From a virus (lineage: Duplodnaviria > Caudoviricetes): 27,517 nucleotides of DNA. Location: IMG/VR virus record IMGVR_UViG_3300026197_000009, positions 1 through 27,517 of that record; one strand, 5' to 3'. The position numbers and the translations under genes were made by a program. The notes under the pieces are model-generated. The model was not told the origin of the DNA. It worked only from the letters and a program-made list of their open reading frames with translations, and ran no database searches. Below are positions 1,020 to 27,517 of the stretch, in pieces; position 1 is the first letter of the stretch, and the number at the start of each line of letters is the position of its first letter.

Positions 1020-1331
1020 TTATACAATATGTACATTATAATCTAATCAATTAGATATTTTTTTTGTTTTAAACTCTTTTTCTCATTTATCAAGTTTTTT
1101 CTTTATCTCATCATAATTAAATCAAATTTTTTCAATAAACTGTTTGAAATACTTTTTTGTTGTTCTTGAATGGTCTCGATCTGGATAGATGTAGATTATG
1201 CGTTCAGGTCGGCTTATCTTGCATATCTTGCTGTTGTAAGACTGAAATACCTCGTTTTTGTAGTCGGTAATATGAAACTGATTAGCGACTGGATTCCCAG
1301 TTCTAGGTGATAAAAGGTTTGATACTTCCAT
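1020..1331 (-). CDS. Conserved-looking phage hypothetical protein, 103 aa (NPVANQF...FQSYNS...PDWDHSRTTKKY)
   Basis: Extended through TGA to TAA 1020-1022; a WDxSRTT motif recalled from phage proteins appears when CGA 1176-1178 is Trp. Confidence 0.8.
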
Positions 1332-2007: not shown

Positions 2008-2589
2008 ATGAATAAACATAATACAAAGATAGATCCAAAAACAAACGATGATACACAAAAAGATAATAAAACAATAAAGACATCCCAAACATGGGATACT
2101 TTCCTCAAAAAGAAATCAGTTAAAAGAGTGTGACGTCCTTTGGCTGTTAGATCAGTAAAAGAGCTTTCAGAAAAGATGCAAGAATATATAGAACTATTGT
2201 ATGAATATAACAACAATGAGGCAAGCCTTAACAAAAAATTCCCATCATTGGAATGATTTGCTGTTATGTCCTGAATATCAGTTAGCACCTTGTATAGGTA
2301 TGCTGATGACGAAAAATATTGAAGGGTTATTGAAGCGTTTAAATCCTTACAAGGCGAGATATTATTAGATAAGATCAGTGATAAGAAGACATTTACGCCC
2401 TGACAGCAGTTCTTGCTTAAGAACATACTGAAAGACCACTATAAAGACAAAATAGAGACTGAAACAACGCACACTCACACGCTTGAAGCGGGGGAAAGCC
2501 TACGTAGTCTTGTTGAGGAAAAGGATAATATGCTCGGTAATACTCAAGAGTGGGAAACAATACCATCAGAAGACATGAACGACGCTTAG
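2008..2589 (+). CDS. terS: Terminase small subunit (P22 gp3-like), 193 aa
   Basis: With TGA=Gly: VGRP, PSLEGFAVMSGISVSTLYRYA (HTH), FLLKN...YKDKIE; upstream of terL. Confidence 0.85.
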
Positions 2590-2816: not shown

Positions 2817-3009
2817 CTTCATAGGGAGGGAGGGGTATTTGCAGAGATAAGGAGAATAAAACATAAGAAAAGTAAAAAAAATTTTACAAAAAAATTGAGA
2901 TATTTACCCCCAATAGTTGACATTTCAAAAAAGTGGGTATCAGGTGAATAGATAGTTAGCCAAAGATTTACTGTATGTAGGGAATGATTTATAAATTAAT
3001 ATATAAAAA

Positions 3010-3216: not shown

Positions 3217-3316
3217 ACAGTCGGGTCGCTTAAGTGCTAGGTAGACGGGGAGATTGGGTGAAAACCTGAAGTCCTGGGGTGGGAGTTCGTGGGAGCGAAA
3301 AAAAATAAAGAATCTC

Positions 3317-3344
3317 TTGATTTTTGAAAAAATATCCTTATAAC
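3317..3344 (+). promoter_or_regulatory. Putative promoter TTGATT-N16-TATAAC
   Basis: Same architecture as the promoters at 1737-1764 and 6335-6362; immediately upstream of the CAP gene. Confidence 0.5.
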
Positions 3345-3373
3345 ACTAGTATTTAATTTATAATAATATTATT

Positions 3374-3826: not shown

Positions 3827-3839
3827 TGATAGATAGCGA

Positions 3840-4013
3840 ATGAAGTGTCATGATTGTTTAGAAAGACGAACAGAAGAATGAGCTGTTGGTTATGAGTGTG
3901 AGATATGTTGAGAAAGATACATAAGTATTGGTAATCTAAAGCCTAAGATTTGTATGAAATGCTCTGAAGAGAATAATTTATGTATGATATGTAAATCAGA
4001 TGGAGGAGAATAA
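3840..4013 (+). CDS. Cys-rich double zinc-ribbon protein, 57 aa
   Basis: Four CxxC pairs: CHDC, CEIC, CMKC, CMIC. Confidence 0.8.
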
Positions 4014-5652
4014 TGCTATAAATGAGATCTGGGACATTGATAAGGTTACTAATCCTTTAACAAAGAAGCTATTAGCTTCATGGTTAGAGGAATTAAATAA
4101 AGAGCATCCCAAGAAATCGGATAAAGACAAAAAAGAGATACTTAATAAAAAGTTAAGAGATTTTTTCAAAAAGAACATAAAGAATAGAATATGGAGACTA
4201 GTTAGCTGACATGTATATATGATTAAAGATAAAGATTGATTTATAGTGCCATTTAAGCCAAATAAACAACAGATATACTTATTAAAAAACCAACACCATA
4301 GAAATGTGATATTAAAAGCTAGGCAATTAGGGTTTTCTACACTTATAGAGATACAAGTTGCTGATGCTATAGTGTTTAATGATAACACTACGACATGAGT
4401 TATAGCTGATACACTATCAAACGCACAGTCATTATTTAGAGATAAACTTAAGTTTGCTATAGATAATATACCACACTGAGTAAGGGAAGAATTATGATTA
4501 CAAGCACAAACAGATAGTAAATCAGAGTTGTTTCTTAGTAATGGAAGTATGACAAGTGTTAGCACATCGTATAGATGAGGAACATTGCAAGTAGAACACA
4601 TATCAGAGTTCTGAAAAATATGTGCTAACGATTCAAAGAAAGCAAGAGAGATAGTAACAGGTGCGTTTAATGCTGTGCCTAAAAATTGAATGCTATTTAT
4701 AGAGTCTACAGCAGAAGGTAATAGTTGATATTTCTACGATATATTTAAAAAAGCTTGGGAATATAAAGAAAAATGAAAGAAACTATCTCCATTAGATTTT
4801 AAGCCATTCTTTTTTCCTCGACATGAAGAGGAGTCTTATAGATTAGACGATGAAGATATTATTATCACATCAGAAGATGAGTTATATTTCAATAAACTAG
4901 CTACAAGATGAATTGAGTTAGATGAATCACAGAAAAAGTGGTACGTTAAAATGAAAGAGACACAATGAGATGATATGTGAAGAGAGTATCCTAGTTATTG
5001 GGAAGAAGCGTTTGATTTGGCAGTAAAATGAGCTTTTTATGAGAGAGAACTATCTTTAGTAAGGAGACAAGATAGGATATGTAAAGTACCTTATGATAGT
5101 AATCTTGATGTATATGCTGCTTGGGACTTGTGATGAGCAAGTAAGGCTTGAGATGAGACAGCTATATGGTTCTTCCAGTTGTTTGGTAATGAGATAAGGA
5201 TAATAGACTACTGGGAAGGTAATTGATATAGTATATTAGAAATATTGAATCATATTATTAGTAAAAAGCCATACAAGATAGAGAAACACTATCTCCCACA
5301 CGATTCAGAAGTAACAGAGATGAGCACAGGAGTTAGGAGAACGCAAATATTCAAAAAACTATGACATACATATCAAGTTATAAAGAAAGCAGCTATTTCA
5401 GACTGAATAGACGCTGTAAGAACAATATTTAACAGATGTTACTTTGATGAAGAGAAAACAGCACAATGAATAAAGTGTTTATCTCATTATCAGAGGGAAT
5501 GGGACGAGAAAAATTGAGTATTTAAGCCTCAACCATTACATAATCGAGCTTCACATGGTGCAGATGCGTTCAGATATTTAGCCACAGCACTTATGAAGAT
5601 AGAAAAAAGAAAAAATAAAAAATTTAAGGTTGCAAAAGCTAAACGAGTATAG
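4000..5652 (+). CDS. terL: Terminase large subunit, 550 aa
   Basis: Walker A KARQLGFST, YRGGTLQ, Walker B HISEFG, ESTAEG coupling motif, FFFPW, AWDLG, YLPHD, PLHNWASHGADAFRY; open to TAG 5650-5652 with TGA=Gly. Confidence 0.97.
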
Positions 5653-5679
5653 TATTTTAAATTATAATTATTATAAAAG

Positions 5680-5976
5680 ATGAATTATTTCAAAATTAGT
5701 TCAGAAGACTACAGCAAAATCCTTAATATGTTTAAGGATAGAGAAGAAAAAGTGCTAAAAGTTATTGATGATTTACTAGGAGATGGAGATGAAAGAGGTA
5801 TTAACGCTCTTTTGGATGTACAAAAGTATAAAATCCACACAGAAAGTGAATTATTTACACTTAAAAAGAACGAAGAAGACATGGAAAAACAAAAAGAGCT
5901 TAAAGAAGCAGAAGAAAAAGAAAAAGAAGAGGCTGAAGTAGAAGAAGATGAAGAAGAAAGCTCAGATGATGAGTAA
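5680..5976 (+). CDS. Hypothetical protein with acidic tail, 98 aa
   Basis: Intact ORF; TTTA at -24. Confidence 0.8.
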   Translation: MNYFKISSEDYSKILNMFKDREEKVLKVIDDLLGDGDERGINALLDVQKYKIHTESELFTLKKNEEDMEKQKELKEAEEKEKEEAEVEEDEEESSDDE

Positions 5977-5996
5977 TTTATATCCTAATTACAAGG

Positions 5997-6266
5997 ATGA
6001 GAGGTAATAAACACATTACAAACCCATTTATTGTTACTATGACAAGAGAAGAATACTCAGAAATGGTATCTATACTGATAAATAGAATAGATAAAGTCTT
6101 AAATGATATTGATAAATATGATACAGGCTATGTTTTGAGCGTTATTAGTTGTTTATCAGACTTAACTACTCTATTAATAGAGTGTAAAGAATGAGAAATC
6201 AATGTAAATCATTATAACAATCTCATAGACGAAATGGTTGAAAGGCTAATGAAATTGCAAAAATAA
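5997..6266 (+). CDS. Hypothetical protein, 89 aa
   Basis: Track ORF extended through TGA 6192-6194 to TAA 6264-6266. Confidence 0.75.
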
Positions 6267-6291
6267 AAACGCCTAAATAATACTACATTAG

Positions 6292-6324
6292 AAGCATATC
6301 CAAAAACAAGGGTATGCTTTTTTT
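6292..6324 (+). terminator. Intrinsic terminator after the packaging genes
   Basis: Stem AAGCATATCC/GGGTATGCTT running into a T-tract. Confidence 0.75.
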
Positions 6325-6334
6325 GTTATACCAG

Positions 6335-6362
6335 TTGATTTTGTCGTAAAAATAGTTATAAT
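6335..6362 (+). promoter_or_regulatory. Promoter for the virion operon, TTGATT-N16-TATAAT
   Basis: Directly after the terminator and upstream of portal. Confidence 0.65.
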
Positions 6363-6483
6363 TGCTTTAGAATTTTATAATGGTATAAACTACCAGTGAT
6401 AAAAACTAATAACGCTTATTTCCATTTATAGAACAATGAGAACTACAATTAAGTGGTTGATTTTTTATTTATAAGATTAATTA

Positions 6484-8520
6484 ATGGCTGTTAATCATCA
6501 AAGTATAATGATAGACAAATGGGAAAAAAGCTTGGGTAAAAAGTGGTCTAAAATCAAAGAATCTAAATCAGATAGATGATTAGATTGGTATAGAAGGACA
6601 TGAGAGCAAATAAAAGCTGAAGATATATTAAAATATACTGAATTACAGAAAGATATTGTTTGAGCTTTATCACAATATAAAACTCAAGCAGAATCAAACT
6701 CAAAAAAGAAGCATAAACTATTTGTAGAGCGAGAAAGAGCAAGAACAAAGCCAGAAGTTTTTGATACAAACCATATTAAAGAGTATCTCCTACACCAACA
6801 CATAAAAGCTGCTACAGGTACTTATTATGATTCATGACTTAATGTAGAATATACTGGAGAGGAGTGAATATTAGACCAAGAGCAAGCACAAGTGTTTGCT
6901 GCACTAGCCAAGAATAGAAAAAAGGTTATGCAAAAGGATAAGAAAGATATGAAGTGGTTAGATAATGTATTATTTTATGGTTGTGGTATTGAGTGGAAGA
7001 CTTGATATGATAAAAACGCAGATGTTCTTACATATGAAGTGGTTAATCCAAAATATTGGATGCCAGACCCACAAGGTGATGTACTTACTAATAAGTTCTT
7101 ATATCATATTCTATCTACAAAATCAACAATAGAAGAATTGGTATATAATCCTAAACTATTCAACTTACAAAATCTTACAACATCATATAAAGACCCTAAT
7201 TGGACTGCTACTGATGCTACAAGATATTTAAGTTCAAGCGAATGAAACGATAATTTCTATCAAATATATAATTGGTCTGTACAAATAGGTAAATGGAAAT
7301 ATAGATGTGCGTTGTCTAATGATAATGGTAACATAATATTCCGAGAACCTATACAACCAATAAACCAAGAAGAAAGAAACGATCCTTCAAAGATACCTCA
7401 CGATGTAAATGTTACTAATTTGTTTTCTTTGGAAGGCGACCCTTTTGGAATGTGATATGCAGAGCTTATCTTATCTTTCCAAAATGCTAAGAATAGATTA
7501 AATAATTACGCAATTATAAAAGAACAAAGATATGCTGGTTTTGGTAACTACTTAGTAGATAATAATATCATACCAGATATAGATATGTTACTTGAAAGAA
7601 GCGAGAAGTGACCTATCTTTGTACCTACAGATAACCCTGATTGAGCACCATTAAGTAATGCTATAGCTCCTGTACAGGAGGAATGAGCAGATGGTAGCAC
7701 GCTTAATATAGCAGATAGAATTGATGTATTAGCAGGAAACCAAACTTGACAAACATCTATGAATAGATGAGCGAGCCCAGGAGCTGAAACGTTATGACAG
7801 TCAAAGATTATGGCTGTTAACTCAAACATCTCTTTCATGATTGATATGACAAATATATGATTTGGTTATGAGAGATTCTGGAAAAACTTCTTTAATAGAA
7901 GTCTCGTAGAGAATCGACCAACATATAAAGAGATATGGTTCAATATGGGAGAAGGGTTGATGACAAGAAAAGTTAAATTAAAGAAACCTAAATTCTTATA
8001 TGGACAAAACCTTGATGTTAGAGTATACTCTAAAGCATTAAGAAGACAAAAAAGGGAAGAAGAAATATTATACATGAGAGAGAAGTTGCAAAACTTAATG
8101 GTTAACCCAAACACACCAGAGTTTTCTAAAAAGTATTTCCAAAGGAAGTATGACGAACTCAATGGTATGGATATGTATGATATAGAATTAGCAAACCGAA
8201 CAGACCCTTCAGAAAGACATGCAAGAGGTATAGTAGAGTTGCTTAATAGAGATATAGAAGTAAAGAACCCATTCAGACCGTGAATGGATTTGAAAACAAT
8301 GTATGTTATTATAAATGAAGCTAACGATTCTGAGCAGAAAACAAAGATATTAGCACAGTTAGATCAACTTATGATAGATGAATGACTAACTACTCCTCAA
8401 CAAGTAGAAGGAGAATGATTCAATATGAATAACTCTATGAACGCAGCTATTACAAATAATAATATACAAAGAAAGCAACAAAATACTGATGTACCTACAA
8501 AGGCTGATTTAATGCAATAA
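6484..8520 (+). CDS. Portal protein (P22-like), 678 aa
   Basis: One frame joins track fragments 7039 and 7945; DNVLFYGCG and DPFGMGYAELI...Q..KNRL.N motifs; size, Q/N-rich tail and position after terL. Confidence 0.85.
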
Positions 8521-8530
8521 CAAACACAAT

Positions 8531-8881
8531 ATGAAAGACATTATACCAAATCTTACTGATGAAAATATAGAGTATGCAGAAGAAGTTGCTGAATTTATTA
8601 AGACAAAATGATTTGATATATTCTATAGACAGATATTATTATGATTATATGAGTCGTATTGTGTTGATGTATTAGCAGACAAAAACCAAGAAGAATCTAG
8701 GATGTATATGCAAGTAATCAAAACAATGTTAGATATACCAAAAAAGACTTTAGACAAGTTAAAAATAGGTAACAGAGACAATAGAAAATATAACGATTAT
8801 TTAGATATAATAAAAGAACAAATAAAAATAGATATTAATGGTAGCACAAAGAATGCTATCAAACAAGATGTAGAGAAGTAA
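8531..8881 (+). CDS. Hypothetical helical protein between portal and scaffold, 116 aa
   Basis: Open with two TGA; TTTA at -23. Confidence 0.75.
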
Positions 8882-8960
8882 CTCTAAAATACGTTTCTTT
8901 GTGTACGAAAACACATTGTTCGGACTATAAAACCGATATTTTATAAATAATACTACTATT

Positions 8961-9545
8961 ATGGTTATTGAAAAAGAAACTTTAGAAAAGCTATCTTCAA
9001 TTAGTGAAGATAACGTTGAAAATCTTGATGTGAATGCAATTAAAGAACTTGCGAAAGGCTATCAAGAAAAAGAAAGCCAAGCACAGGGTCTTACAAGTGC
9101 TTTACAAAAAGACAGAGAAGAACTTAAAATTGTTAAAAAACAATTAGAGGCTTTATCTAAAGAACAGAAACCAGAAAGTGGTGGTTCTGAAGAAGAAAAA
9201 CAAGCTAACAAGAAAAATCAAGAAACTCATGAGGAGTTAGTTAAAAGACTTCTGAAAGAACAAAAAGAGGCAGAAGAAAAAGCTGCCAAACAAAAAGCAG
9301 ATGAAGAGTTTTTTGCAAACAATCCTAGGCTTAATAAAGAAGAGGTTATGGATATTGTAAACAAACACAACTTTACTGCAAAAGAGGCTGTAGAATTTTT
9401 AGCTGCTAAAGATGGTGTAAATGTATCTACTATGATATGAGCACCAGAGGAAGCACCAAAAAAAGATGAAGCTCTTGAAAGAGCTGCAAACATTGCTGGT
9501 ATTTCTATTGAAGAAGCTAAAAAACTAAGAAAGCCTAGAAACTAA
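8961..9545 (+). CDS. Capsid scaffolding protein, 194 aa
   Basis: E/K-rich coiled coil upstream of the capsid genes; extends through one TGA (9438-9440) to TAA 9543-9545. Confidence 0.75.
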
Positions 9546-9570
9546 TTTTATTTTATTTTTATCTTATCTG

Positions 9571-10341
9571 ATGAAAGCTTTAAAATCAAAACACGGTGTA
9601 AGAACATACTCTCTTGAGAAAGATTCTTCTACTGTTATTCCTGCTGATAGTTTTGTTACTCTCAGTTCTGGGCTTGCTGTTGTTGCTGTTGCAGCATCTA
9701 GTGCTCTAGGATATACAAGAGGAGGTGCTGGTGAAGGAGAAACTGAAGTTCTTATCGACGCAGATGTAGATGTAGTATACGAAGGTACTGGAGATGCTGT
9801 TTTTGCAAAAACACAAAGAGGTACTGAAGTTGACCTAGTAATCGAACCTGCTTATTTAGAAACTGGAGTTGTTACTGAAACTGACGCTGATGTATGGGAA
9901 CTAATCACAGACGGTTCATTTAGAATCTCTATTGATGGAACTGCATACAATGTAGATGGAATAGACTTTGACACTGATGCTGATATGGATGATGTTGCTG
10001 CTTCAATCCAAACTGCATTACAATCTGCTACTTCTGGTTCAGAAACTGTAACTTGGGACTCAACAAACTCTAAATTCGTAATTAGCTCTGTATCTGCTAC
10101 TGCTTCTAGTGAAATAAGTGTATTAAGCACTTCTACTGGAACTGTTGGTACTGATATTAGTGGTTCTGACTACCTAAATGGTAGAAATGGATCTGGTACT
10201 GTATTTAATTATGAACAAAAAGTTGATGTTGGTGCATCTTCTACAGATGTATTCAAAATTCAACCTACTAACGACGCTGGAACTGTTGGTTCTGCTGATG
10301 GAATTAGATTCCAAATCAACAAACCACTTTTCGCTAACTAA
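9571..10341 (+). CDS. Capsid cement/decoration-like protein with an internal DUF3383-like insert, 256 aa
   Basis: Position between scaffold and MCP; small G/A/V-rich beta fold interrupted by ITDGSFRISIDG...IDF...DDVAASIQTAL...VTWD...KFVISS...GTDIS. Confidence 0.65.
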   Translation: MKALKSKHGVRTYSLEKDSSTVIPADSFVTLSSGLAVVAVAASSALGYTRGGAGEGETEVLIDADVDVVYEGTGDAVFAKTQRGTEVDLVIEPAYLETGVVTETDADVWELITDGSFRISIDGTAYNVDGIDFDTDADMDDVAASIQTALQSATSGSETVTWDSTNSKFVISSVSATASSEISVLSTSTGTVGTDISGSDYLNGRNGSGTVFNYEQKVDVGASSTDVFKIQPTNDAGTVGSADGIRFQINKPLFAN

Positions 10342-10368
10342 TTTTATTTTTTTTTAAATTAAATAACG

Positions 10369-11322
10369 ATGCTATCTACAGAAACTGTTGTTGCACAAAA
10401 GAAAGACATCAGCGATTTGTTCGAATCGTTAGCAGACATTACTATGTCTAACACTTATTTCTCTAAAGTATTTAGAGTAATGGATGATCTAGAATGGACT
10501 ACTAACTACGCACAATTCGAAGGTGGAACTGGTACAACTTGGTTGGAAGAAGCAGAACCTTATCCTGAAGTTAAACCAAACGATGGATATGAAACTAGCT
10601 TAACTCCAGAAAAGCTTGGTAACCAAATCATTGTAACTAAAACAATGAGAAGAAAAGCTATGGATTCTACTCAAAAAATGAGAGAATTTGTAGAACTACA
10701 AATGAGAAATCAAATCAATGATATGGCAAGATTCTTGGAAAAAGAAACTCATAAAATGTTTACTGATTATTCTAGTTATTTAGCTCCAGATACTAAACCT
10801 ATCTTTGCTAATAACCACAAATGGAATAATGATGTTGCATGAGATTACACTTTCGATAATCTACAAACCGCTGCTTCATTTAGTGATTCTGCTGTACAAG
10901 CTGTTAAAAAGTATGAAGGTACTTTAACAGATTCTACTGGAACACCAATTGATATCGAATTTGACACTATCATAACTGGACATGGAACTGCTGCTGCTAC
11001 AAAAGTAAGACAATACTTACAAGCTAATGGTGGACAGTATGAAACAAACTCTCTTTCTGGTGTAGTTGTTTACAATAATGGACGAACTCATATTGAAGAC
11101 AAATACCTTAAAGATGATGATAACTATGATAATATGTATATATTTAGAGCTTCAAGAGGACGAAAAGGTGAAAATTCTCTAGTTGTAGTCTTCCAAGAAA
11201 GACCAACTATGGGTGAACCTGTTGTTCAATCTAACGAATCAGTAGTATTCCCATACTCTGGATTTGTGAAGTATGGATGTGTATATATGCCATTAGATTA
11301 TATCTATAATGCTGGTGCATAA
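10369..11322 (+). CDS. Major capsid protein (HK97 fold, Mu gpT-like), 317 aa
   Basis: Track fragments 10369 and 11134 joined across a single TGA (10840-10842); APDTKPIFANNH motif; strong codon bias; followed by a terminator. Confidence 0.85.
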
Positions 11323-11332
11323 ACATAGGGAT

Positions 11333-11363
11333 GGGGAGATTAAGTTCTCCCCCTTCTTTCTTT
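11333..11363 (+). terminator. Intrinsic terminator after MCP
   Basis: GGGGAGA-ttaagt-TCTCCCC then a pyrimidine/T-rich tract. Confidence 0.75.
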
Positions 11364-11381
11364 ATAAAATAAACATAAAAC

Positions 11382-11681
11382 ATGGGAACTATGCAAAGAT
11401 TTAGATACAAGGGACATTGGCTATCAGCTCAACAACTAAAAACTCTTAAAGAAAGAGAACTAAAAGAGGAAACTTATTTTGAGGATGCCAAACTTGAAGA
11501 AAAAGAAGATGAACAAGTTGTTGATGAAGTCAAAGAAGTAGAAGAGATAAAAGAAGATGAACAATCTATTGAGGAGTTAAAAAAAGAATATGAAGACTTA
11601 ACTAACAAAAAAGCTGTTGGTAAATACGCAAAAGATAGAGAATGGCTTACTAAAAAAATAGAAGAAGCTAAAGCTGAATAA
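11382..11681 (+). CDS. Small acidic protein with a C-terminal helix-loop-helix-like segment, 99 aa
   Basis: Intact ORF; IEELKKEYEDLTNKK...WLTKKIEE. Confidence 0.75.
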   Translation: MGTMQRFRYKGHWLSAQQLKTLKERELKEETYFEDAKLEEKEDEQVVDEVKEVEEIKEDEQSIEELKKEYEDLTNKKAVGKYAKDREWLTKKIEEAKAE

Positions 11682-11751
11682 TCTAAAGATTCATAGACCT
11701 GTTTATGGGTCTATTAGATTGTTTCGTAATTTATTTTTCTGACACTAATAC

Positions 11752-12447
11752 ATGACGCCTCAAGATTTGAAGAATTTACTGATAAAGGTAACACATACTG
11801 ACTTAAGCGATGATGATGCTTATCTATATTTGAATATGGCATATAAAGAATTTCGAAACGCTATAGTAAATTCAAAAAAGAACTATAACTTTGAATTTTG
11901 GGTAACAAATGTATTATCTTGATTGAGTGAATATACGTTAAAACAACCAGACGTAACAGAAGTAAATCAAAGAGATAAACGATGACAACAAGCTGTTGAG
12001 AAAGTATTTATAAAATACGATACTGACAGTGATTTTGTTGAACTTAAACCTAGAACACGAGATACTATAGAAGCAACTCCTGAATACTTAAAAGAAAACC
12101 AATCACAATCAGACCCGATAGTGATTATATCAGATAACTCTTTGTTTATATATCCTACTCCTGATACTGTTGTAACAGATTGATTATTGTTTTACTGATA
12201 CAGGAAACCATATAATTTATCTGACACAACAACAAGTTCAGATGACATATTAGTACCTGAACAATGGAGGAAAGTAATAGTAACTGGAGCAAAGAAACGA
12301 GTATACGAAGCTCAACAACTACAAAACGAAGCAGAGAAAGCTGAAACTGATTATGTACAACAAAAGAGAGTGGCGTTATCTAGTATGGCAATGAGAAGAA
12401 CATCTGTTACACAGGGTATAGTACCAAAAGTAAGAGATATGGAGTAA
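11752..12447 (+). CDS. Head-tail adaptor protein, 231 aa
   Basis: YLNMAYKEFWNAI, GLSEYTL, FIYPTPD, LVPEQWRKVIVTGA motifs; synteny. Confidence 0.75.
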
Positions 12448-12468
12448 TTTATTTCATTAACGAAGTGT

Positions 12469-13962
12469 ATGCAACGAAATAGACGATATGGCTGAATGAG
12501 TGATACAAACACCTTCGTTGGTGATGCTCAATACGTATATTCAGAAAACATAGAAGTAAGAAAAAACCCAGAATATTTAAGACTATCAAATAAGAGTAAG
12601 AACCGAATAACTACTGATTACAATGTAGTTAATATGCTAACCTTCACAGACCGAAGAGGTATTTTTCTATTTTGAGAATGATGACAAGTAAGCGATTTGT
12701 GAGTTCCTCTATATACTTTATCTTGATGAGAGGAAATATTAGATGCTATTGCGTTTAATGATTACTATTTGTTATTTTACGTAAGAAGTAATAGGATAAG
12801 GATGGCTAGTATTGATATTGGCTCTGCTAATGCTTGAAACTGGACAGGTAATGTAACAGAAGATATACAAGACTGAACTGGTACGGTTATAGAATATGAT
12901 ATATGATATAATTCAAGCAATCAAAGAAAAATCTGACTACAGAATAGAGCAAACCAAATATTATATATAGCATCATGAAAATCTACACATAGATTGTTTG
13001 TTAGTTCTGGTTGAGATCGAGTTAGTGAAGCTCTAATAGAAAATATAGATAATGATTTCGTATGAATAACACAACATGGAAATTACTTCCACTTATATTT
13101 AAATAATTGAAGAAAATATTTATGGGATTGACAATGATGAGAAACTAAACAGTTAGCACTGTTAAATACAGAATTAAACATTACCAATGTAATAGAAACG
13201 CCGACTGTTGATTATATAGTTTGAGATAACGCAAGTCAGGATACAACATTATATTATTCTGCTTGATTGGATATGTTTAAGAAGGTAAAAAAAACTATTA
13301 AAATAGCAGAACCTGAAGAGAAGTATAAATTTCTAATTGAATCATGAAGCATAAGTAATCATTTTGCCAAATACTATGATGATATAACATATTTTACTGG
13401 TAAATGCTGAGATGATGCAGATACTTGAGCTTTAATATCTATATGACAAGAATATGATTGATTTCAGACATCAGTAGTTAATAGTATTACAGGTTGTGAT
13501 TGATGAAATGGAACAATCAGTGCAATAAACTGTATAACTACATTTGGTAGTTGATTCTTATATTATGCTTGGGAATGAGATTTGTGATGAGAAAGCTATT
13601 GAGTTGATTACATATATTTATGAGAATGAAAACAATCTAGCCAAGAATACCAAAAACAATGAGAATTATGGTCTAAAAGAGAGAATTACTGAAATAATGC
13701 TCTAACTAAGAAGATAATCAACTCTTACATAAGAGCAGATGTAGATACATCAAACTATATTAATGTATACTACTCTATAGATTGAGGTAGCCGAACCTTA
13801 TGGAAAAGACTAGATGATAGTACTAAAAAAAGACATAAACTATTAGACTTAAACAAGAAATTCTATGAAATACAGATAAAACTTGAATTTGTAGGAACAT
13901 GAACATCAACACCTAAACTATATCAATTTAATTTATTACCACAAGTGATAAATGAGCCTTAG
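12469..13962 (+). CDS. Tail nozzle / head stabilisation protein (P22 gp10-like, beta-propeller), 497 aa
   Basis: N-terminal WYGGMSD...SENIEV, beta-rich body, C-terminal YYSIDGGSW...EIQIKLEF...TPKLY; follows the adaptor. Confidence 0.7.
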
Positions 13963-14326
13963 AGATAATATAGATAAGATAAATGAAGATTTCAAAGTTG
14001 ATGTTGATAAAATGAATAAAGACTTTGAGAAAGATTTTTTATCTTTAGATGGTACTGAGGTAGATATATCAAAAAATGTAGAGGTTGATGAAGATAAAAA
14101 AGAATATGGGTATTCTAAACAAGCATTAGACCCTTATATAGCACTTGATAGAGATAAATTAGAAGAGTTTATTGAAGATTATTTAGAGGGAAACTCATAT
14201 ATGAGATATAGAGGTACATCATTACCTACATCAGACATAAGAGAATGAGATACATACACAACAGGTACAGGTACATTATTCATTTATAACTGAACAAGTT
14301 GGGTAAAAGTAGAAGAAAATCCTTAA
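13952..14326 (+). CDS. Small virion protein, 124 aa
   Basis: C-terminal LPTSDIREGDTYTTGTGTLFIYNGTSWVKV trimeric-fibre-type motif after TGA readthrough. Confidence 0.7.
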
Positions 14327-14348
14327 TTTATTTTAAAAACAATAAAAT

Positions 14349-16919
14349 ATGGTATCAAAAGCTAGACAACAGGAAATAGCTGCAAACATACAAGAAGCTG
14401 TAGACTCTTGAAGAATATCTCAAGAAGATGTTGCACAAGCTAAAGCAGATTTATGATTTGAGGGTAAAACTACTCAAGATGTTCAGCAAACCCAAACAAC
14501 ACCTCAACAACCTAGTCAATGAAAACCTCAACAAGAACAATCTCAACAACAAAGAGATACTTGATTAGACCCTGTTGAAGATATAACTGTAAGACAACCA
14601 GAGATACAACCTAAGGAATGAGAAAGAGTAGAATGAAAGGTGCAAGATAGAGTAGAACCTATGCAACTAGAAGAATGAGAAACAACTCAATTCTGACAAG
14701 CTGTTAAACAGATGTGACCTGACGCAAAACAATTTATGAATAGAAGAAATCAAGCGCTTGCAGATGAAACGCTTAATTCTTTGATGCCTAAAATAAATTC
14801 TGGACAAATAGATTTAACAGAAGAATCTTTAATATCCTCTATTACTAATACTATCACAAGACGTGGTGGTGAAGTTGTAAATATAAAAGACCGACAAGAT
14901 ACAATAAACGATATTAGAGATAGAATGTGATTTAGTGTTGGTACTGACTTAGATAAAATAAATCAAGAAACAAAATATGATAGATATAATGCTAATGTTT
15001 CATGAGAGAGAGCTGGATGACCTGAAGAAATATCTACATTAAAACAGAAAGTTACAGACTATCTTGAACAAGAAGGTATAGATTACGACGAAGCTAAATC
15101 TCAGATAGATATAGATGCAAGATATGAAGAGATAATCAATAATCCTGACTATAAGAATGCTAACTCAATGATGAATGAGAGTAAAAAGGTTGTTGACGAC
15201 TTAGAGGAACAGAAATTTAATCTATTATGAGAGATAGACGAAGCTTTTCCTTGAGAGCCTTCTTTTGTGATAGACGCAGTATATTCCGATAGACTTGAAG
15301 ATATTAATAAACAACTAAGAACAGCCACTATTACACATAACAAAAATGTTGCTAATTACCAATTTCAAGAAAAACTAGCACAACAAAAGTTATCAAACTA
15401 TATACAAGAATATCAAATAAACCAAGACCAGTTATGGAAAACAATTTCACAAGAAACTGGTATTGCAAAAGCAGACCGAAACCAAGATTGGACAAATTTC
15501 TATAAACAACAAGATAGAGAAGACCAGAAAGAATTACAACAACTATCTTTGTTAAGTCAATTAAATCTTAAAGGTATGAGCGATAGTAATATAGATTGAT
15601 TAGATACAACAAGTTTTGTTAAAGATATATTGAAATTTAAAAGTCAAGTAGATTCTAAACAGAAAGAACAAACAAATATGTATTACGATGAAAACTCAAA
15701 GAATATGGTCTTCTACGATAATTATGGAAACGTTATAAATACATATAGTCCACAATGATGATGAACTACTACATCAGAATGAACCTCAATGTGGGTTAGT
15801 CCAGAGAATATACCAGAATGATGACTAAGAACAGATAGACACAGAAATCCAACAGCCTTGATGTATACAGAATGAGTTGCCAAATTCTTTAAAAACAAGT
15901 GATATAACGTATCTAAATGAGATAAATTTCCAGATAGTAACAACTATACTTTAGATATGAGTAATATAGATGACCCTGTACAGGCTACTATAGATTATAT
16001 AGACGCATATTGATTTGATTATAAAGGACAAAACAGACGAACACATACATCAATGTCAGACGAATCTCGAAACAACTTAAATAATCAACAAAAGAGATGA
16101 GTAATTAAAAAGATGTATTCAAGAGAATTAGGTAGTTGAGAATTGTTCTGAGAAAATTATATTGCATGAGCACAAAGAAGTAACTCTTATAATAAAAACC
16201 TTTCAACAACATATAGAGAGTTTATTGTTAATGGTAAATCCCCTTCTGTTGCTGTATTAAAATCAGACTTTGGATGAAGTGCAGAGGAATTATGAAGACA
16301 AGCAAATAATTGGTTTAAAGATAATATATGAGAAGTATTAGGTGGTTCTAATGTTAATATGAAGAACCCTCAATTATTTACTTTTTGGACTAAAGAACAA
16401 AGAGATTGATCTATTGAATGAATGAAGACAATTAACAAAACATTATGATGAATAGAACAGGTTGTTGATTATATAGAAAATAACTTTGAAGATTGAAAAA
16501 TTATGTATGATTGATGAAGAAGTAAACTTAAAACATTAAGAGGTAAGATTACGAATTTACAATTATGAGTAAAAGATAAATGACTATATAACTTATGAGT
16601 ATTAAACTGACCTGACCTTGAGCTAATAGAGTCAGTAATACCAAATGTAAATTTCTTTAACCCAATCCCAATTGATAACGATAATTACATAACAAAAGAA
16701 GAAATGATTGAGAGGATGAAAGAAACTGCAAAAACTTTTGTTGAATGATATGATGATGAAAATATATTATACTGAATAAATGTTACAAACCCGTTCGCAT
16801 TAGATGATACACAAGGTGGTAATGTAGTATGACAAAGTAATCCTCAAATAAATGAAGAAGAGATATTGAAAGAAACATTAAATAGTACATCATATAGTGG
16901 GGCAATAGAATGATTCTAA
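14349..16919 (+). CDS. Internal virion / DNA ejection protein 1, 856 aa, with a possible muralytic domain
   Basis: One frame with many TGA (three in a row at 15756-15764); Q-rich coiled coil; RTDRHRNPTAL and YNLGVLNGPDLELIESVIP motifs. Confidence 0.7.
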
Positions 16920-16949
16920 TATTAATAATTTAATTATATATATATAAAT

Positions 16950-18869
16950 ATGGCACTAAATACTTGATTACAGAACACTTGATTACAGAATACCTGACTA
17001 CAGGGTATATGATTAAATAATACTTGAACAAATACTCCAACACAACAAAATAATCAAAAAGATTGAATGAGGAACGCTTGAACATCTTCATTTAACAAAA
17101 AATCAACACCAATTAAGTACATAACATTAGAAGATTTCTACAAAAAAGCAAAGCCACTAACAGAGAAATACAACAAATCTTATACACAAATAATGAAAGA
17201 CGTTGAGGATTCTTGAACAATGGTTATTGGTTCTGAAGTATTTAAACAAAAGATAACAAAAACAAATGTAGAAAAAACAGAAAGTCAACCATGACAATGA
17301 TTACAAAACTTCATGGACTCAGGTGTTTGAAAATTTGGAACAGAATTAGGAAATATATTTAAAAACGCAGTTGCATCAGCGCCAACAACCGTAACAAATA
17401 CTGCCGCATTTCTTCAGGAGATAAATCCATTAAGACTTGTAGATAAGGCTGTTGACGCAATATTGCCATGAGATCAACCAGACTATTTAAAAGAACAAGC
17501 AGATGATTTAAGAAATCTATGAGAAAATGCTAAAGTTGAGATACAAGATTTTTTAGATGCTGATAAAGAATGACGAAGTGCAACTGTATGAGCATTTATA
17601 CCTGAAGTAGTTGCTTTTTTCGCTTGATGAGAAGCTGTTCAATGAGCTAAATTTGTTAAAGCATTAAATAATTCAATTCGTTGAACTAAAATACTATCAA
17701 AGACACCTAGATTGGCAAAGTTTTTATGAGCTTTATCTAATGTAACATTAAGATGAGCTTGATGAGCAGAGGCAGGTAGTATTGTGTGAGAATGAAGAAC
17801 AGCAACACCATGAGAGCTTGCATTATGAGTTTGAGCAGAAGTTGGTATTGGAGCTGTATCTACTTTAATAGGTAAACCATTAAAATCATTATTTGCAAAG
17901 AAAATTCCTAAACAAGCTAAAACAGCATTTAAAAGATTAGGAATAAAAAAATATGATGATTTAGTCAACGCATGAGAGAAATCATCTTTAGATAGAACAA
18001 CAACAACACCAGCAGAGCTTGTTGCAAAAAATATAGAAGATTCGTTCGATAAAGCTCAGAAAGAGTTATTATGAGAATGAAAGAAACTTTGAGACATAAG
18101 AAAATGATTTACAGATATAGTTGCTTGAAACGAAATAAATTGAAATAGATTTGCAGACGAATTTGCTGATACAATAGAAGATAGATTATGAGCCAGAATA
18201 ATTGACTGAGATAAGCTTGATATAGTAGACGCACCCAATAGAACAAACCAAATATTTAAGGAGGCAGATGAAAGGCTTATTAAGAAGATATATAAAAAGG
18301 TTAATAGTCTTTGACCTAATACAAAGTTAAGTGAATTAGATGATATAGCACAACTTTTCTGAAAAATGGAAGATAAATCAACTAAATGAGCATTTGCTAA
18401 ATTAAAGAAAGACATTCTAAATAGGGTTGATGAATTATGAGGAAAAGAATTTAAACAAGCTAAATCACAATATAAAGAACTAATGGATTTCTTAGATGAA
18501 TCAACAGAATGAAAAAAATCAATACAACTACAAAAAGAGTTCTTTAGTAGTAATCCTACAAGATCTAAAAAGATTTTTGAGGATATTGAAAAGATTACTT
18601 GAATAGATCTAGTCCCAGAGATGGAAGCAGCTAGGTTTGTTATGGATTCATTGCAAGATCCTCAGTTTTCTAAGTTCTATCCTTCTGCACCTGGAATTAA
18701 AGAAAAAATTATAGAATCATTACAATCAAACTTAGATAAACCAATTAAAAGATGAAGAAAATTTGTTGAATGATATGAACCAGATAGAAAAATATTCTTA
18801 GAATGATTAAAATCATTAAAGTCTACTTTAATAGGTCAGGCGTCAACTTTAAATGATAACCAAGACTAA
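16950..18869 (+). CDS. Internal virion / DNA ejection protein 2, 639 aa
   Basis: N-terminal NTGLQ repeats, central G/A-rich hydrophobic segment, helical K/E-rich C-terminus. Confidence 0.7.
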
Positions 18870-18871
18870 CG

Positions 18872-19162
18872 ATGGTAACAACAGAATGGAGACTTGTTAG
18901 GGAAGATAGATGAGATGCTGTTCAGTTAGCTTGGAATACTTGAGATGATGATTTATTATTACGAAATACTGGAACTGAAGATGTTTTGACATATCAGCTC
19001 TTATGATTTACAGAATGGGAGTCTTATAACAACACTATAGTTGTTTGAATGCCATTAGAAACAGATTGATGATTATTATTACAAAACGAATCTTGACAAA
19101 CACTCGTAGGTAACGTTGCATATACTAAATGATGAACAGAATGGGGTGTATTTAATTCTTAA
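18872..19162 (+). CDS. Small tail protein, 96 aa, with TEW and WNTG repeats
   Basis: Open with TGA=Gly; internal LAWNTG/LLWNTG repeat. Confidence 0.7.
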
Positions 19163-19170
19163 TATAAAAT

Positions 19171-20508
19171 ATGGTAAAAGTTAACGATCTTCCAGAAAAA
19201 GATACGATTGTAGCTGCTTGAGATGAGTTGGTTATAATTGATAGTGGAGATAGCGATAAAACTAAAAGAATAGCTGCTAGCAAATTTAAATGAAATAGCT
19301 GAATAACAGGAGAGGAAACAACTATAGTTGATTCTTTCTGAAATTGAGATTATACAACTATATGAGCTGCTCTTACTGCTGGTGCTAATCGTATTTTTGT
19401 TAATGATTGAAATTACACAGAAACTTATTGGGATTTAACTAATAAAGATGTTAGAGTAAATTGTGCTTCTTATAATGTAAATATTAATTTCAACAACACA
19501 GATGTACATGGCTGAACTTATATATTAGCAGATGATGATACTACTGTTATTATACAGGATGGTACTTTCAATTTCACTATGAATAGTGTAAACACATTTT
19601 GATTAGACGGAGGTTTATCGGATGGTACTTTTATCTGGAAAGATTCTATTATAAATGTTAATTGAGACGATGTAGCTGGTAGGGCTTTTACAGATTTATT
19701 TATGGATAGAGGCTGAGAAAATTGACGACATTATTGTAAGTTTAAATTCTTAAATGCTACAAATACTAACCCTATAAAATTAACTGATGCTAGGACAAAT
19801 TTTAGTTTTTGTGATTTCTATTGAGGTAAAGTAATATTTTGAGGTAACTCATCAACAGAAATGAAAAGTTGTAGAACTACGGATTTAGTATGAATATGAT
19901 TTGATTGAGGTAGATATATAGATTGTTCGATGTCTAATTCTTCAGTAACAACTATATATGATAAAAACTGAACACAGACAGATTCTTCTGTAATAGATTG
20001 GTCTGAAAATAGTGCTATTTCTTTTTTTAACGCTACAACAGTTCCTGCTTGAATAACAATAGAGTGAAGTTCATCAAGTATATTTAATTTTGATTCAACA
20101 CCTATAACATTAGAAGATGGTACACTTTCATATGCTTGACATTCACATTCAGTATTTCTTTGGGATGGCTCGGTTGCTTGTACAATATTAGCTAATACTA
20201 TTACATGATGTTCATTTTCTAACAATACTGGTGGTAAGATTTCTATAGAAAAAGATTATAATGTAAGCTCTGGTAATGCTTTTCAAAATATAGATGTAGA
20301 CTTAATTTGATCTGGCATAGCTCTTACTGGTAATAGTAGGGTTTGAGACTTAATTATAAGTTGAGATAATTCGTCTATAACATGAAATAGCGATTTAGGT
20401 ACTGTAACATTTAATACTTGAGCCGATAATAATATATTATTAGCAAATACAGATGTATCAACAGTAACTGATAATGGGTCTGGGAATGTTAATGTTAATA
20501 ACACATAG
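19171..20508 (+). CDS. Tailspike with pectin-lyase-like beta-helix, 445 aa
   Basis: Anchor KVNDLPE...DELVIID...KTKRI; GNGDYTTIGAAL...IFVNDGNYTE; N/S/I/G-rich repeats. Confidence 0.78.
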
Positions 20509-20549
20509 ATAGTATATAACAATATAATTTACTTAAATAAACAATCTAA

Positions 20550-21935
20550 ATGGCTTGAACACCTAAAAGAATAGATGAACTAACAGAGATAGTATCAATC
20601 GCAGATGATGATATTTTAGTAGTAGTACAGGATTGAGAAACTGAAGCTAAGAAAATAAAGAAATCAAACGCTATAACTTGATGAAGTGGAGCTGTAGATA
20701 GTGTTAATTGACAGACTTGAACAGTTGTATTGGATGCTGATGATATAAGCGACACTACTACAACTAATAAGTTTGCTACATCTGCAGAGCTTACACAAAT
20801 ATCAACAAATACAAGCAATATATCTACTTTAGATACTGATAAAGCAGATAAAAGTAATGTATTAGAATTAAACAATACAACAGCATTCACTCCTGACGCA
20901 GATTACGAACCTGCTACAAAAAAATATGTAGATGATAATGCTGGTAGTGGTTGAGTTACTTGACCTGCTACTAGTACAGATAGTGCTATAGTATTATTTG
21001 ATTGAACTACTTGAGATACTATAAAAGATAGTGTAAAGACTATAGTTACTTCTACCACTTGATTGGGTAGTGACGATACTACAGTACCTACATCTAAAGC
21101 AGTAGCAGACGCTATAGGTAGTTCTTGAGGTTGAGATATGTTATCTAGTACCTATGACCCTACCAATGTTTCAGCAGACGCTTTTGATATGGATAATATG
21201 GTAGAATGAACTACTAATAAAATATTAACATCTGCAGAAAGAACTATCTTAGGCAATACATCTTGAACAAATACTTGAGATGAAGTAGTAGCAACTGGTG
21301 CAGAGGTAGATACCTGAACAGATGACACTAAAATGGTTACACCTAAAGCTATAGCAGATAGTAAAGTCAGCTATACTGACTGAACAGAAACACTAACAAA
21401 TAAAACGCTTACATCTCCGAAGATAAACGAAAATGTGGCAGTAACATCTACAGCTACAGAACTTAATATATTAGATTGAGCAACTCTTTCAACAACAGAG
21501 CTTAATTATGTAGATTGAGTTACAAGTTCTATACAGACACAACTAGGTACTAAGCTAGAAAATATATCAGAAGATACTACACCTCAACTAGGAGGAGAAC
21601 TAGACGCTTGAGCTAATAGTATAGGGTTTACACAAGGAACAGCTACAGGAGATGGTACTACTACTATTGACTGGGGGAATGGTAATAAATTCAAATTCAC
21701 ATTTGGAGCACAAAACGAAACATTCACATTCACAGCACCTGCTAAACCAGGTAACTTCTTATTAGTATTAGTACAAGATGCTACAGGTAGTAGAACTGCT
21801 ACACGACCTGCCACAGTAAAACGACCATGAGGAACAGCGCCTACACTTACTACAGATGCAAGTGCGGTAGATATAGTTTCTTTCTATTATGATGGGACTA
21901 ACTACTACGGACAAGCAGGACTAGATTTTAGTTAA
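20550..21935 (+). CDS. Tail fibre protein, 461 aa
   Basis: VDSVNGQTGTVVLDADDI, PATKKYVD, ETLTNKTLTSP, TELNYVDGVTSSIQTQL, QDATGSRTATWPATVKWPGGTAPTLT motifs. Confidence 0.88.
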
Positions 21936-25060: not shown

Positions 25061-26674
25061 ATGGAAAAAATAATAACTAAACCACAAGCAATATTTCGTG
25101 AGGACTTTCGTAGTAGAGCGAATGTTATCCGTAACGGTGGAACACCTAACAATGTAACCTTTGAGGATGGCAAGGCTGTTTTTGATGATACCATAGGTAA
25201 TAATATTAACTATGGTTGTTATAAATATTTAGCTACCAAAGGAAAATTCAGTATTAGAGCAAGGTTCAAGTTTACCACTCTTAACCAAGGTAATGTCGTT
25301 CGTATTGATAATTTCGGTATAATAAGAGTTATTGATGGTAAGATATTCACTTGGGGTCAAGGTATTAGTAGTAGTTTTTCAACTGGTGGTACTTACAATG
25401 ATGGTCAATATAAAGATGTTATAGTCACTGTTGATGTAGATTATGGTGTTAGAATTTTCGTTGATGGTGAGTTTGTTAAGGAAAATCTTGGTACTGGAGA
25501 TTTAACTATTATAGATGGTCTTTTATATGTAGGCTCTTTAAGTACTGGTAGTGAACCTTTTGATGGAACTATTGATTTCGTTGAAATCTACAACCGCACT
25601 CTATCCGCTGAAGAGGTTTCTCTTCTTAATAGTGGTTCTTACTCTCAAGGTTTGAGTTCTAGTGTTAAGGAGCAGCTTGGTGATGAGTTAGTTGTTAATG
25701 GTACTTTCGATACTGATAGTGATTGGACTGTAGGGTCTAATTGGTCTATCGAGAATGGTAAGGCTGTCGCTTCTGGCGTTTCCGGTGATGCTATAAAACA
25801 ATCCATTAATACAAGTTTGGGAATAAAATATCGTATTACTGTTGATGTTACTATTGAAAGTGGTAGCATTAGCGGTTATCTTGGTTCTAATGGCGGTATC
25901 GACCGTTTCATGGATATAAGTTCATCAGGTTCTTATCAATTTGAACATAATATATCTGTTAATAATAACCAGATTTTCATTTATGGGTTTGATGGGTTTG
26001 TAGGTAGTGTTGATAATATATCAGTAAAAGAAGTTTTTAACACTGATACTACTACACTCCTCGACTACCAAAGTATTAATGGAGTTATTGAGGATAAGAG
26101 TGGGTTGAATACACTAACACCTACTGATGTTTCAGTTAAAAAGAACGGTGCTTTATGGAGTGGAGAGTTTAACGGTTCATCTAGTAAGATTGATTGTGGC
26201 TCTGACTTTATTGGAACAAAAGCAATCACTATTATGGGTTGGATTAATCCTTATAGTTTTGGTGAAAATAATTTTGGTTCTATAATCCATAATTGTGCTT
26301 ATAATGGGGATAGTTTGAAGATTAGGATGTACGATGATAATAAAATGCAATTAACTTCTGATAGTGTTTCTTATGCACTATCTGGTAATGACAGTATAGA
26401 AATTAATAAATTGAAGTTTATAAGTATTACTCGTGATGAAAGTGGTGTAGTTAATTTCTATTTCGGTGATAAGGAGAACGCTCCTGAATTAACAGGAGAT
26501 GCTAACCAAGATAGTGGAACACCTACTGCTGGTGAAGAAAATGTTATTATAGGTAACGATACAACAATTATAAGAACCTTCGACGGTCAAATACCTATAC
26601 TCACAGTCAAGGAAGGAATTTTATCACTAGAACAGATAACCCAAGAACGAAGCAATACAAGGTGGAAAGTATAA
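25061..26674 (+). CDS. LamG + carbohydrate-binding-like + LamG receptor-binding protein, 537 aa
   Basis: FDGTIDFVEIYNRTLSAEEV; GDELVVNGTFDTDSDW...GSVDNISVKEV; second LamG FNGSSSKI...RTFDGQI. Confidence 0.85.
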   Translation: MEKIITKPQAIFREDFRSRANVIRNGGTPNNVTFEDGKAVFDDTIGNNINYGCYKYLATKGKFSIRARFKFTTLNQGNVVRIDNFGIIRVIDGKIFTWGQGISSSFSTGGTYNDGQYKDVIVTVDVDYGVRIFVDGEFVKENLGTGDLTIIDGLLYVGSLSTGSEPFDGTIDFVEIYNRTLSAEEVSLLNSGSYSQGLSSSVKEQLGDELVVNGTFDTDSDWTVGSNWSIENGKAVASGVSGDAIKQSINTSLGIKYRITVDVTIESGSISGYLGSNGGIDRFMDISSSGSYQFEHNISVNNNQIFIYGFDGFVGSVDNISVKEVFNTDTTTLLDYQSINGVIEDKSGLNTLTPTDVSVKKNGALWSGEFNGSSSKIDCGSDFIGTKAITIMGWINPYSFGENNFGSIIHNCAYNGDSLKIRMYDDNKMQLTSDSVSYALSGNDSIEINKLKFISITRDESGVVNFYFGDKENAPELTGDANQDSGTPTAGEENVIIGNDTTIIRTFDGQIPILTVKEGILSLEQITQERSNTRWKV

Positions 26675-26695
26675 TTTATTTATAAATACATATAG

Positions 26696-27517
26696 ATGAA
26701 AAAAATATTCAGTTTCAATAACAAAAGAAACGGCTCCTACATCGACTCAATGAGCGGTGTGCAAGGCGTTAACACTAACGGTGAATTCAAACAAACTATT
26801 AAAGGATTGGCTTATAAATTAGATACTTCAACATCGTTATCTTTCACCGTTGATAGTTTTGATGCTGTTAATCTTATAACAATGGCTGGTGGTAACGGTA
26901 CATTAAGAGTTGCTATTGGTTCTACAAACACAGATATTGTTCTTACTGGATGGTCTTTCGATAAAACTATTCTATCATTAACAGATGAAACTACTGTTAC
27001 ATTTTCTTGTACTTCAGGGACTGTTTACTTATCACGTTGTCTTATTTTTGATGAGAGTATTTCTACAGATGAAGAAAATGATTTAGAAAAACAATTCCTT
27101 AGAGCAAGTCCTATCACTCGTGGTAACGCAGGGACTAAGTATGCTAATCCTGCTAGTATGATTACTAACCTTGAGCGTGAGAAAGAAGCTTATTTAAAAG
27201 ATATTACTTATAACGATTTTAAAAACAGTGATAGCTTTCCATATACAACATTTACAGGAGACGGTACTAACGGGTTTAGTGTTTCAAGTGAGGTTAGTGA
27301 TATTTACATTGCTGGACTTGAAAATCTTAACCTTGTCGAGGGTGAGAAATATCATGTCACTTATAACGCTAGTTTAAACTGTTGTGAACCTCCAATCGCT
27401 AGATTTCAGGACGGTGTCGCTGGTAATTTTGCAAGTGATAACGATGATTACCATTCTGTAGAAGGGTTTAACGATGTCACTTATACAATAACAAGAACTA
27501 CAGGTGCTGATGGTGTT
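26696..27517 (+). CDS. Lectin/LamG-like virion protein, truncated at the right edge (274 codons in window)
   Basis: ATG 26696, open to the window end with no TGA; beta-rich; LVEGEKYHVTY CBM-like segment. Confidence 0.7.
   Translation, partial: MKKIFSFNNKRNGSYIDSMSGVQGVNTNGEFKQTIKGLAYKLDTSTSLSFTVDSFDAVNLITMAGGNGTLRVAIGSTNTDIVLTGWSFDKTILSLTDETTVTFSCTSGTVYLSRCLIFDESISTDEENDLEKQFLRASPITRGNAGTKYANPASMITNLEREKEAYLKDITYNDFKNSDSFPYTTFTGDGTNGFSVSSEVSDIYIAGLENLNLVEGEKYHVTYNASLNCCEPPIARFQDGVAGNFASDNDDYHSVEGFNDVTYTITRTTGADGV

Follow-up and report, generated by a model that had tools for sequence, protein, structure and literature searches.

A phage genome with CGA at tryptophan and TGA at glycine positions, in line with the code predicted for Absconditabacteria

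Our analysis of a 27,517-nt stretch of phage DNA (Duplodnaviria; Caudoviricetes; positions 1 to 27,517 of IMG/VR record IMGVR_UViG_3300026197_000009, called the window below) showed that this phage places the codon CGA at tryptophan (Trp, W) positions and TGA at glycine (Gly, G) positions, in early as well as late genes. Judging from sequence comparisons, the transfer RNAs (tRNAs) of its host, predicted to be a member of the Absconditabacterales (SR1), very probably read the two codons in this way. The same double reading had been proposed in a preliminary description made from the letters alone, and homologue columns now support it in late genes (the terminase large subunit TerL, the adaptor, the putative nozzle and the tail fibre) and in early ones (the leftward gene at 1020-1331, a DnaD-like and an NrdD-like gene). 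As that description also stated, CGA and CGG as Trp together with UGA as Gly is a published prediction for Absconditabacteria (SR1), found in the available text of Shulgina & Eddy 2021 (PMC8629427) and restated in that of PMC13092985.

The window is contained in a complete phage genome, IMGVR_UViG_3300007537_000001 (G001; 47,686 bp, 123-bp terminal repeat, 30.7% GC). Read with translation table 25 (TGA as Gly), it yields 30 complete genes and one running off the end, and the seven codons singled out beforehand are all CGA and all in frame. The 30 genes hold 284 TGA, 34 CGA, no CGG and 76 TGG codons, and their arginine (Arg, R) codons are 191 AGA, 36 AGG, 13 CGT and 2 CGC, which bears out the earlier remark that Arg is mostly AGA and that TGG is still a Trp codon. 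Over the 63 genes of the complete genome there are 138 TGG, 63 CGA, 4 CGG, 514 TGA and 499 GGN codons; 47 genes end in TAA and 16 in TAG, with no other stop. TGA is present in 58 of the 63 genes and CGA or CGG in 39, and the coding length amounts to 13,730 amino acids with TGA as Gly, against 4,058 under table 11. TGA makes up 70% of Gly codons in the leftward (early) genes versus 42% in the rightward (late) ones (p=6e-16), while the share of CGA plus CGG among Trp codons does not differ between the two groups (p=0.29).

To read individual sites we masked CGA as X in the query and recorded the residue found in the homologue columns. For TerL these were the 119 best of 4,118 homologues, 83 of which carry no sign of Trp stored in place of Gly and were taken as standard-code. 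The column of CGA 4819 is W in all 83 (117 W and 2 R among all 119). In the tail fibre, 21804 aligns to 107 W, 11 F and 1 L and 21822 to 115 W, 3 F and 1 Y among 119 homologues, with no R at either site, and the column of the AGA next to them is R in 113 of 119. CGA 1176 of the leftward gene meets W in seven of seven aligned records (out of 24 matching records), or in six of seven on re-alignment. For these four sites the claim that family motifs require Trp stands; it was overstated for 5545 (44 W and 26 F among the 83, an aromatic but not invariant column), for 11854 in the adaptor and for 13792 in the putative nozzle (14 Y, 10 F, 8 W and 2 R among 42 distant homologues), whose columns are aromatic or mixed.

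Other columns are of the same kind or say less. TerL 5644 meets 32 Y, 13 F, 6 W and 25 gaps. In two close relatives, the four adaptor sites 11854, 11980, 12058 and 12298 are W and W, W and W, F and F, and Y and Y, respectively. Among the 42 nozzle homologues the column of 12475 is hydrophobic, that of 12484 has 20 F, 5 W and 3 R, and 12604, 12652 and 13018 lie in variable columns. The CGA column of the DnaD-like gene has 22 W, 17 F and 1 Y of 40, that of the NrdD-like gene 8 Y and 1 H of 9, and a further early gene has one CGA aligned to W and a second to I. The four portal sites lie in poorly conserved, uninformative columns. Two apparent cases of Arg were considered and rejected: Pfam NRDD favoured Arg in the NrdD-like gene by 1.2 bits, but close homologues have Tyr in eight of nine; and the whole-protein match to Pfam SU10_adaptor was reported with the Arg reading only, which is a filter effect, since two natural relatives of the adaptor also return nothing (the single-site difference is 1.1 bits). 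A phosphoesterase gained 3.3 bits with W (profile scores only; 187 phage records matched); it had no relative in the PDB, and among viral contigs it matched only itself. CGG may be read as Trp as well: one PHROG profile gains 2.8 bits with W, but only four such codons exist genome-wide and their poor homologue alignments show K, S, N, E, G and L.

We then summed log-odds over the homologue columns of all genes for which homologues had been collected, in a test modelled on Codetta, a kind of profile analysis that the preliminary description had named as a check. Over 22 columns CGA decodes as W (+33.8; next F, -5.1; R, -33.0), with W ahead of R at 19 of them. In the same test the control codons returned the expected residues, namely G for TGA (114 columns), W for TGG (29), R for AGA (74) and R for AGG (14). 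Altogether 56 of 60 scored codons matched table 25, the exceptions being CGA, ATC (V versus I) and two codons scored from a single column each; CGT was not among the mismatches, and CGC was scored from one column only. Mistranslation of CGA as R in database homologues pulls the result towards Arg. In paired scans against PHROG the W reading gave the top match a higher score than the R reading for 10 of 14 proteins; the gains were large (+14.9, +7.9, +5.1 and +3.8 bits), the losses small (at most 1.6).

The CGA sites are not sequencing errors, since a second assembly (G001) and contigs from run X2, which belongs to a study other than that of the possible source run X1, agree with the window; the X2 contigs cover 4819, 21804 and 21822 with zero differing letters. 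Only an indel at 10963, a single substitution at 22518 and six differences within the final 23 bases set the window apart from G001. At 10963 it is G001 that misses one base, so that its capsid gene is frameshifted and the window copy is intact. Runs X3-X5 hold fragmentary relatives, among them an 84%-identical contig that keeps both fibre CGA codons with 12 of 23 four-fold third positions changed, a small number of sites.

We found no release-factor domain in the complete genome, no intronless tRNA at default ARAGORN settings and no synthetase among the genes scanned; without a canonical tRNA or release factor of its own, the phage likely relies on host tRNAs.

A candidate for such a host lineage comes from the portal protein. 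Among 401 genomes of the class to which G002 and G331 belong (called class genomes below), the closest portal belongs to a prophage on the single 936,577-bp contig G331 (E 5e-78, 30% identity), and it is the sister of the phage portal with support 100/99 among 14 rows. The prophage is syntenic with the phage, shares homologues of its capsid, adaptor, nozzle and lectin genes, and has CGA or CGG in W columns. Between its early and late blocks (G331:C1, about 877,000-918,000) lie a GroEL-like gene and a putative integrase, two names given by eye; this layout suggests that the prophage is rearranged or composite. The surrounding chromosome has one release factor and a tRNA(UCA) that shares U73 with the Gly tRNAs encoded there. 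Its tRNA(UCG) and tRNA(CCG) have A1-U72, G73 and U20, as does its tRNA-Trp(CCA), whereas its three other Arg tRNAs carry A20; we take the former set to mark Trp identity and A20 to mark Arg identity in these tRNAs. A tRNA(UCG) without A20 is also present in G269. A candidate for the tRNA-Trp(UCG) that the preliminary description had named as a check is present, in Trp-like form, in G331, the host of the sister prophage, and a tRNA with the UCG anticodon in G269. On the strength of the published code G331 would belong to the Absconditabacterales, and the hosts of the phage are predicted to be of that order as well, through a link that runs via a sister prophage of 30% identity. The proposal that the code points to the host gains support from this prophage, residing as it does in a chromosome with CGA as Trp and TGA as Gly. 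The proposed search for CRISPR spacers gave no spacer-like match in the 401 class genomes (window 1-20000 and G001 16001-32000 against two scored candidates per genome, with G001 7379-16000 left out), and no CRISPR array lies near the 20 top loci of that search.

TGA as Gly does not imply CGA as Trp, because several TerL relatives with TGA as Gly carry CGA in conserved Arg columns (L090, from a bin labelled Gracilibacteria, L176, L177, L178 and L201). TerL matches occur in 17 of the 401 class genomes, with CGA or CGG in Trp columns at nine loci and in Arg or Lys columns at most others. When the host code was typed from the Ile-, Val- and Leu-tRNA synthetases of nine genomes, phage and host agreed on CGA in eight of the nine bins: W in both for G279, G269, G058 and G331, R in both for G002, G310, G315 and G344. 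Integration is shown for G331 alone; the part of contig G279:C8 that was read is phage throughout. Two contigs seen along the way are probably misbinned: G170:C14 (L362), with CGA as Arg in a bin with CGA as Trp, and L124, a TerL contig with TGA as Gly whose bin is labelled Neisseriaceae and encodes two release factors.

Several observations weigh against a uniform Trp reading. The summed test leaves 41 of the 63 CGA codons, about two thirds, without a column, and about half of its 22 columns are weakly conserved, three of them favouring R (portal 478, adaptor 103, nozzle 46). At six distant adaptor loci the residues are mixed, with R at two of four sites, and 11854 aligns to T or I in five distant matches. 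The relative L171 carries AGG, a true Arg codon, in the near-invariant Trp column of the AWDLG motif, so that single sites can mislead. One of the nine bins, G170, is discordant (host CGA as W, an 8.5-kb binned contig with CGA as R or K), and for G331 and G058 the host code was called from two to three synthetase sites each. Finally, in an alignment-free test of codon neighbours the CGA mean (-0.24) is nearer to that of R (-0.22) than to that of W (-0.06), with p=0.066 against W and 0.75 against R. This test barely separates W from R (area under the curve 0.57), and its controls were sorted as expected for three cases of CGA as W and one of CGA as R, with a second case of CGA as R mis-sorted (one wrong in five); in our view its outcome is a weak hint and leaves room for ambiguity.

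Such ambiguity, in which the host would decode CGA as either Trp or Arg and some sites would be Trp-like and others Arg-like, was left open by Shulgina & Eddy in the available text of PMC8629427, and the neighbour test and the three R-favouring columns lean towards it. We nevertheless judge it unlikely here. No CGA of the phage stands in a conserved Arg column (in TerL, none of the ten such columns that carry an Arg codon has CGA), whereas relatives with CGA as Arg have two to four such sites in TerL alone; at four sites the phage has CGT or CGC in place of the CGA with which its lectin homologues encode Arg; and the tRNA(UCG) of G331 and that of G269 lack A20. Decoding of CGA in the host would then be unambiguous.

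Could the phage instead supply its own decoding RNA to a host with a different code? Four tRNA-like elements sit in non-coding gaps outside the window (L008 1150-2422, minus strand; G001 17150-18422). The best of them, a 131-nt element at G001 c18292-18422, scores 40.2 bits against the Rfam tRNA model and was missed by default ARAGORN; its acceptor, D and T arms are intact and three hairpins replace the anticodon arm. The three nearby cloverleaf-like folds lie at G001 c17431-17500, c17353-17431 and c17150-17247, the last ending in CCA, and two of the four elements share an upstream hairpin motif. None of the four, however, shows UCG, CCG or UCA in a canonical anticodon loop, there is no release factor and no synthetase among the scanned genes to go with them, and the stronger use of TGA in early genes is the reverse of what is seen in code-switching phages, all of which makes this explanation very improbable. 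A motif search for relatives of the elements returned two unrelated contigs only, and Rfam found no such elements in the phage regions of G331 or G279.

That CGA is ordinary Arg under plain table 25 in a host of the Gracilibacteria type, with the Trp columns reflecting chance substitutions, we regard as extremely unlikely: many close TerL relatives do combine TGA as Gly with CGA as Arg, L171 has real Arg in Trp columns, and SU10_adaptor was reported for the Arg reading only, but that last result is the filter effect described above, and this reading would have to place Arg in five near-invariant aromatic columns, independent of one another and spread over four unrelated genes, and to overcome a summed W-R difference of about 67 log units, so that the TerL, fibre and leftward-gene columns, together with the summed test, largely refute it. 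L171 itself (8091-9665; JGI24709J26583_10004999) has a TerL with TGA as Gly that lacks both CGA and CGG and carries AGG in two columns of the Trp type, in which P0034 and P0065 likewise have R; either Arg is genuine in this clade or the pattern is left over from an earlier change of code.

Returning to the reading of CGA as Trp by host tRNAs, the phage would have come to it as follows. Host tryptophanyl-tRNA synthetase would charge tRNA(UCG) with Trp, and host tRNA(UCA) would read TGA as Gly, release factor 2 having been lost; during long residence in such a host the phage would drift into its code, Arg would move to AGA and AGG, and CGA would refill about 31% of Trp positions. The phage resembles the Absconditabacteria code, as described in the available text of PMC8629427, in TGA as Gly, CGA as Trp, Arg mostly AGA, low GC, CGG rarer than CGA and TGG as the main Trp codon. 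It differs in being a phage genome with no decoding tRNAs of its own and in that CGG as Trp is predicted for the bacteria, with only four CGG in the phage; CGA reaches 46 per 10,000 codons over its 63 genes versus fewer than 37 in Pfam-aligned host domains, two figures with different denominators. For Gracilibacteria the predicted meaning of CGG varies in that text, being Trp in some and Arg in others. Arginine-codon reassignments are described as experimentally unverified in the accessible part of the gTranslate report (10.64898/2026.05.24.727570).

Phages with code 25 that infect Absconditabacteria and Gracilibacteria have been described by Borges et al. (10.1101/2021.08.26.457843) and Liu et al. 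2023 (PMC10746230). As far as the text of those papers was available, our phage is like theirs in using TGA as Gly genome-wide (92% of genes here, about 90% reported), in probably matching its host and in showing no code switch. Both papers score the stop codon only, whereas CGA divides such phages into a Trp and an Arg class; the string CGA occurs 0 times in their main texts, supplements aside, and the available text of PMC11452946 does not mention it. Sense recoding in a phage is less new than the preliminary description suggested: the text we had of PMC8629427 already reports two phages with host-matched AGG as Met (RFN20 Bacilli). Those phages, too, adopt a sense-codon reassignment of the host without a decoding tRNA of their own; codon, residue and host are different, and here a sense and a stop reassignment are combined. 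With code-switching phages (Lak and crAss-like, code 15 or 4; Borges et al., available text) ours shares stop codons that lie in frame all through the structural genes. The hosts of those phages use the standard code, and the phages themselves often have suppressor tRNAs and show recoding chiefly in late genes. Ours has none of these traits and is not a code-switching phage, because its TGA recoding is stronger in early than in late genes. The phage very probably follows the published host code, and the CGA change is apparently unreported for phages so far: the literature searched, which took in few subscription papers and no supplements, holds no report of CGA as Trp in a phage.

The code-25 phages could well form two populations with incompatible sense codes, CGA as Trp and CGA as Arg, that track host order, with the silent reassignment filtering host switching and gene import and imported genes, such as the lectin pair here, losing Arg-CGA first; we hold this proposal with middling confidence.

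Table 1. Genes of the window, with their coordinates and codons of interest
Feature	Position	Strand	Basis and codons
Early leftward gene (phrog_21575)	1020..1331	-	CGA 1176-1178 in Trp column; CGA 1209-1211 uninformative; W reading +5.1 bits over R
Terminase small subunit (TerS)	2008..2589	+	Profile/database match; 5 TGA, no CGA
CAP-domain gene, hydrophobic N-terminus	3374-3826		Between TerS and TerL
Terminase large subunit (TerL)	4000..5652	+	Profile/database match; 22 in-frame TGA in Gly columns; CGA 4819, 5545, 5644
Probable portal	6484..8520	+	Named by position and size; 18 TGA, 4 CGA
Probable scaffold, DUF3383-domain protein, probable major capsid, small gene	8961..11681	+	2 TGA among 55 Gly codons
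Probable major capsid	10369-11322	+	Order and size; CGA 11083, 11161
SU10-type adaptor	11752..12447	+	Pfam SU10_adaptor match; CGA 11854, 11980, 12058, 12298
Putative nozzle	12469..13962	+	Gene order only, no profile match; 38 TGA, 6 CGA
Two long genes, likely ejection proteins	14349..18869	+	Inferred from order and size; 93 TGA, 5 CGA
Tail fibre (phrog_9017)	20550..21935	+	CGA 21804, 21822; W reading +14.9 bits
Two lectin-like (Laminin_G_3) genes	25061..27517	+	Second continues in G001 to 8663; CGT-rich

The gene complement (Table 1) suggests a short-tailed phage. Of the names given previously, that of the adaptor has profile support and that of the nozzle follows gene order. The remaining genome encodes an amidase, exonucleases, HNH proteins, a phosphoesterase, NlpC/P60, YopX, a primase-helicase and the DnaD-like and NrdD-like genes. 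The earlier view that the phage is fully adapted to the double code holds for the genome at large, TGA being spread over most genes, but not for the capsid block and the two lectin-like genes, which are almost free of TGA. In the capsid block (8961-11681) TGA accounts for 2 of 55 Gly codons, versus 61% in other genes, and the capsid gene of the G331 prophage likewise avoids it (0 of 22), likely an expression bias. In the lectin pair (window 25061-27517; G001 6558-8663) TGA accounts for 1 of 120 Gly codons, and CGT or CGC for 15 of 36 Arg codons. TGA is almost absent from the lectin homologues of four class genomes as well, and at four of their Arg-CGA codons the phage has CGT or CGC; the pair was likely imported from a standard-code source with loss of Arg-CGA. 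Its CGA 26648 aligns to Tyr in one homologue.

A phage that follows its host's code is what specialists would expect, and the surprise is modest; the phage is useful for assigning hosts, for annotating such genomes correctly and for testing the code by proteomics. The meaning of CGA splits predicted Absconditabacterales phages from other phages with TGA as Gly, which screens of stop codons cannot do, and if the proposal of two populations is true CGA would be a one-codon host classifier. Abundant virion proteins with CGA at conserved Trp sites, the fibre (21804, 21822) and the capsid (11083, 11161), are practical targets for testing the reassignment, and virion proteomics could then prove directly, for the first time, that a sense codon has been naturally reassigned in bacteria. 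Public databases mistranslate such genomes at both TGA and CGA. In the stored copy of TerL (P0002) each of the 22 internal TGA sites is given as W and each of the three CGA sites as R, 25 differences in total, and this copy is one of four database copies (with P0122, P0242 and P0245) that differ from the table-25 reading of the phage proteins. The Trp-for-Gly signature is present in 34 of the 119 TerL homologues; R stands in Trp columns in 6 of these 34 versus 0 of the 83 without it. In the TerL homologues P0030, P0034 and P0065, R occupies three to four of six conserved Trp columns, and CGA or CGG may have replaced most TGG there.

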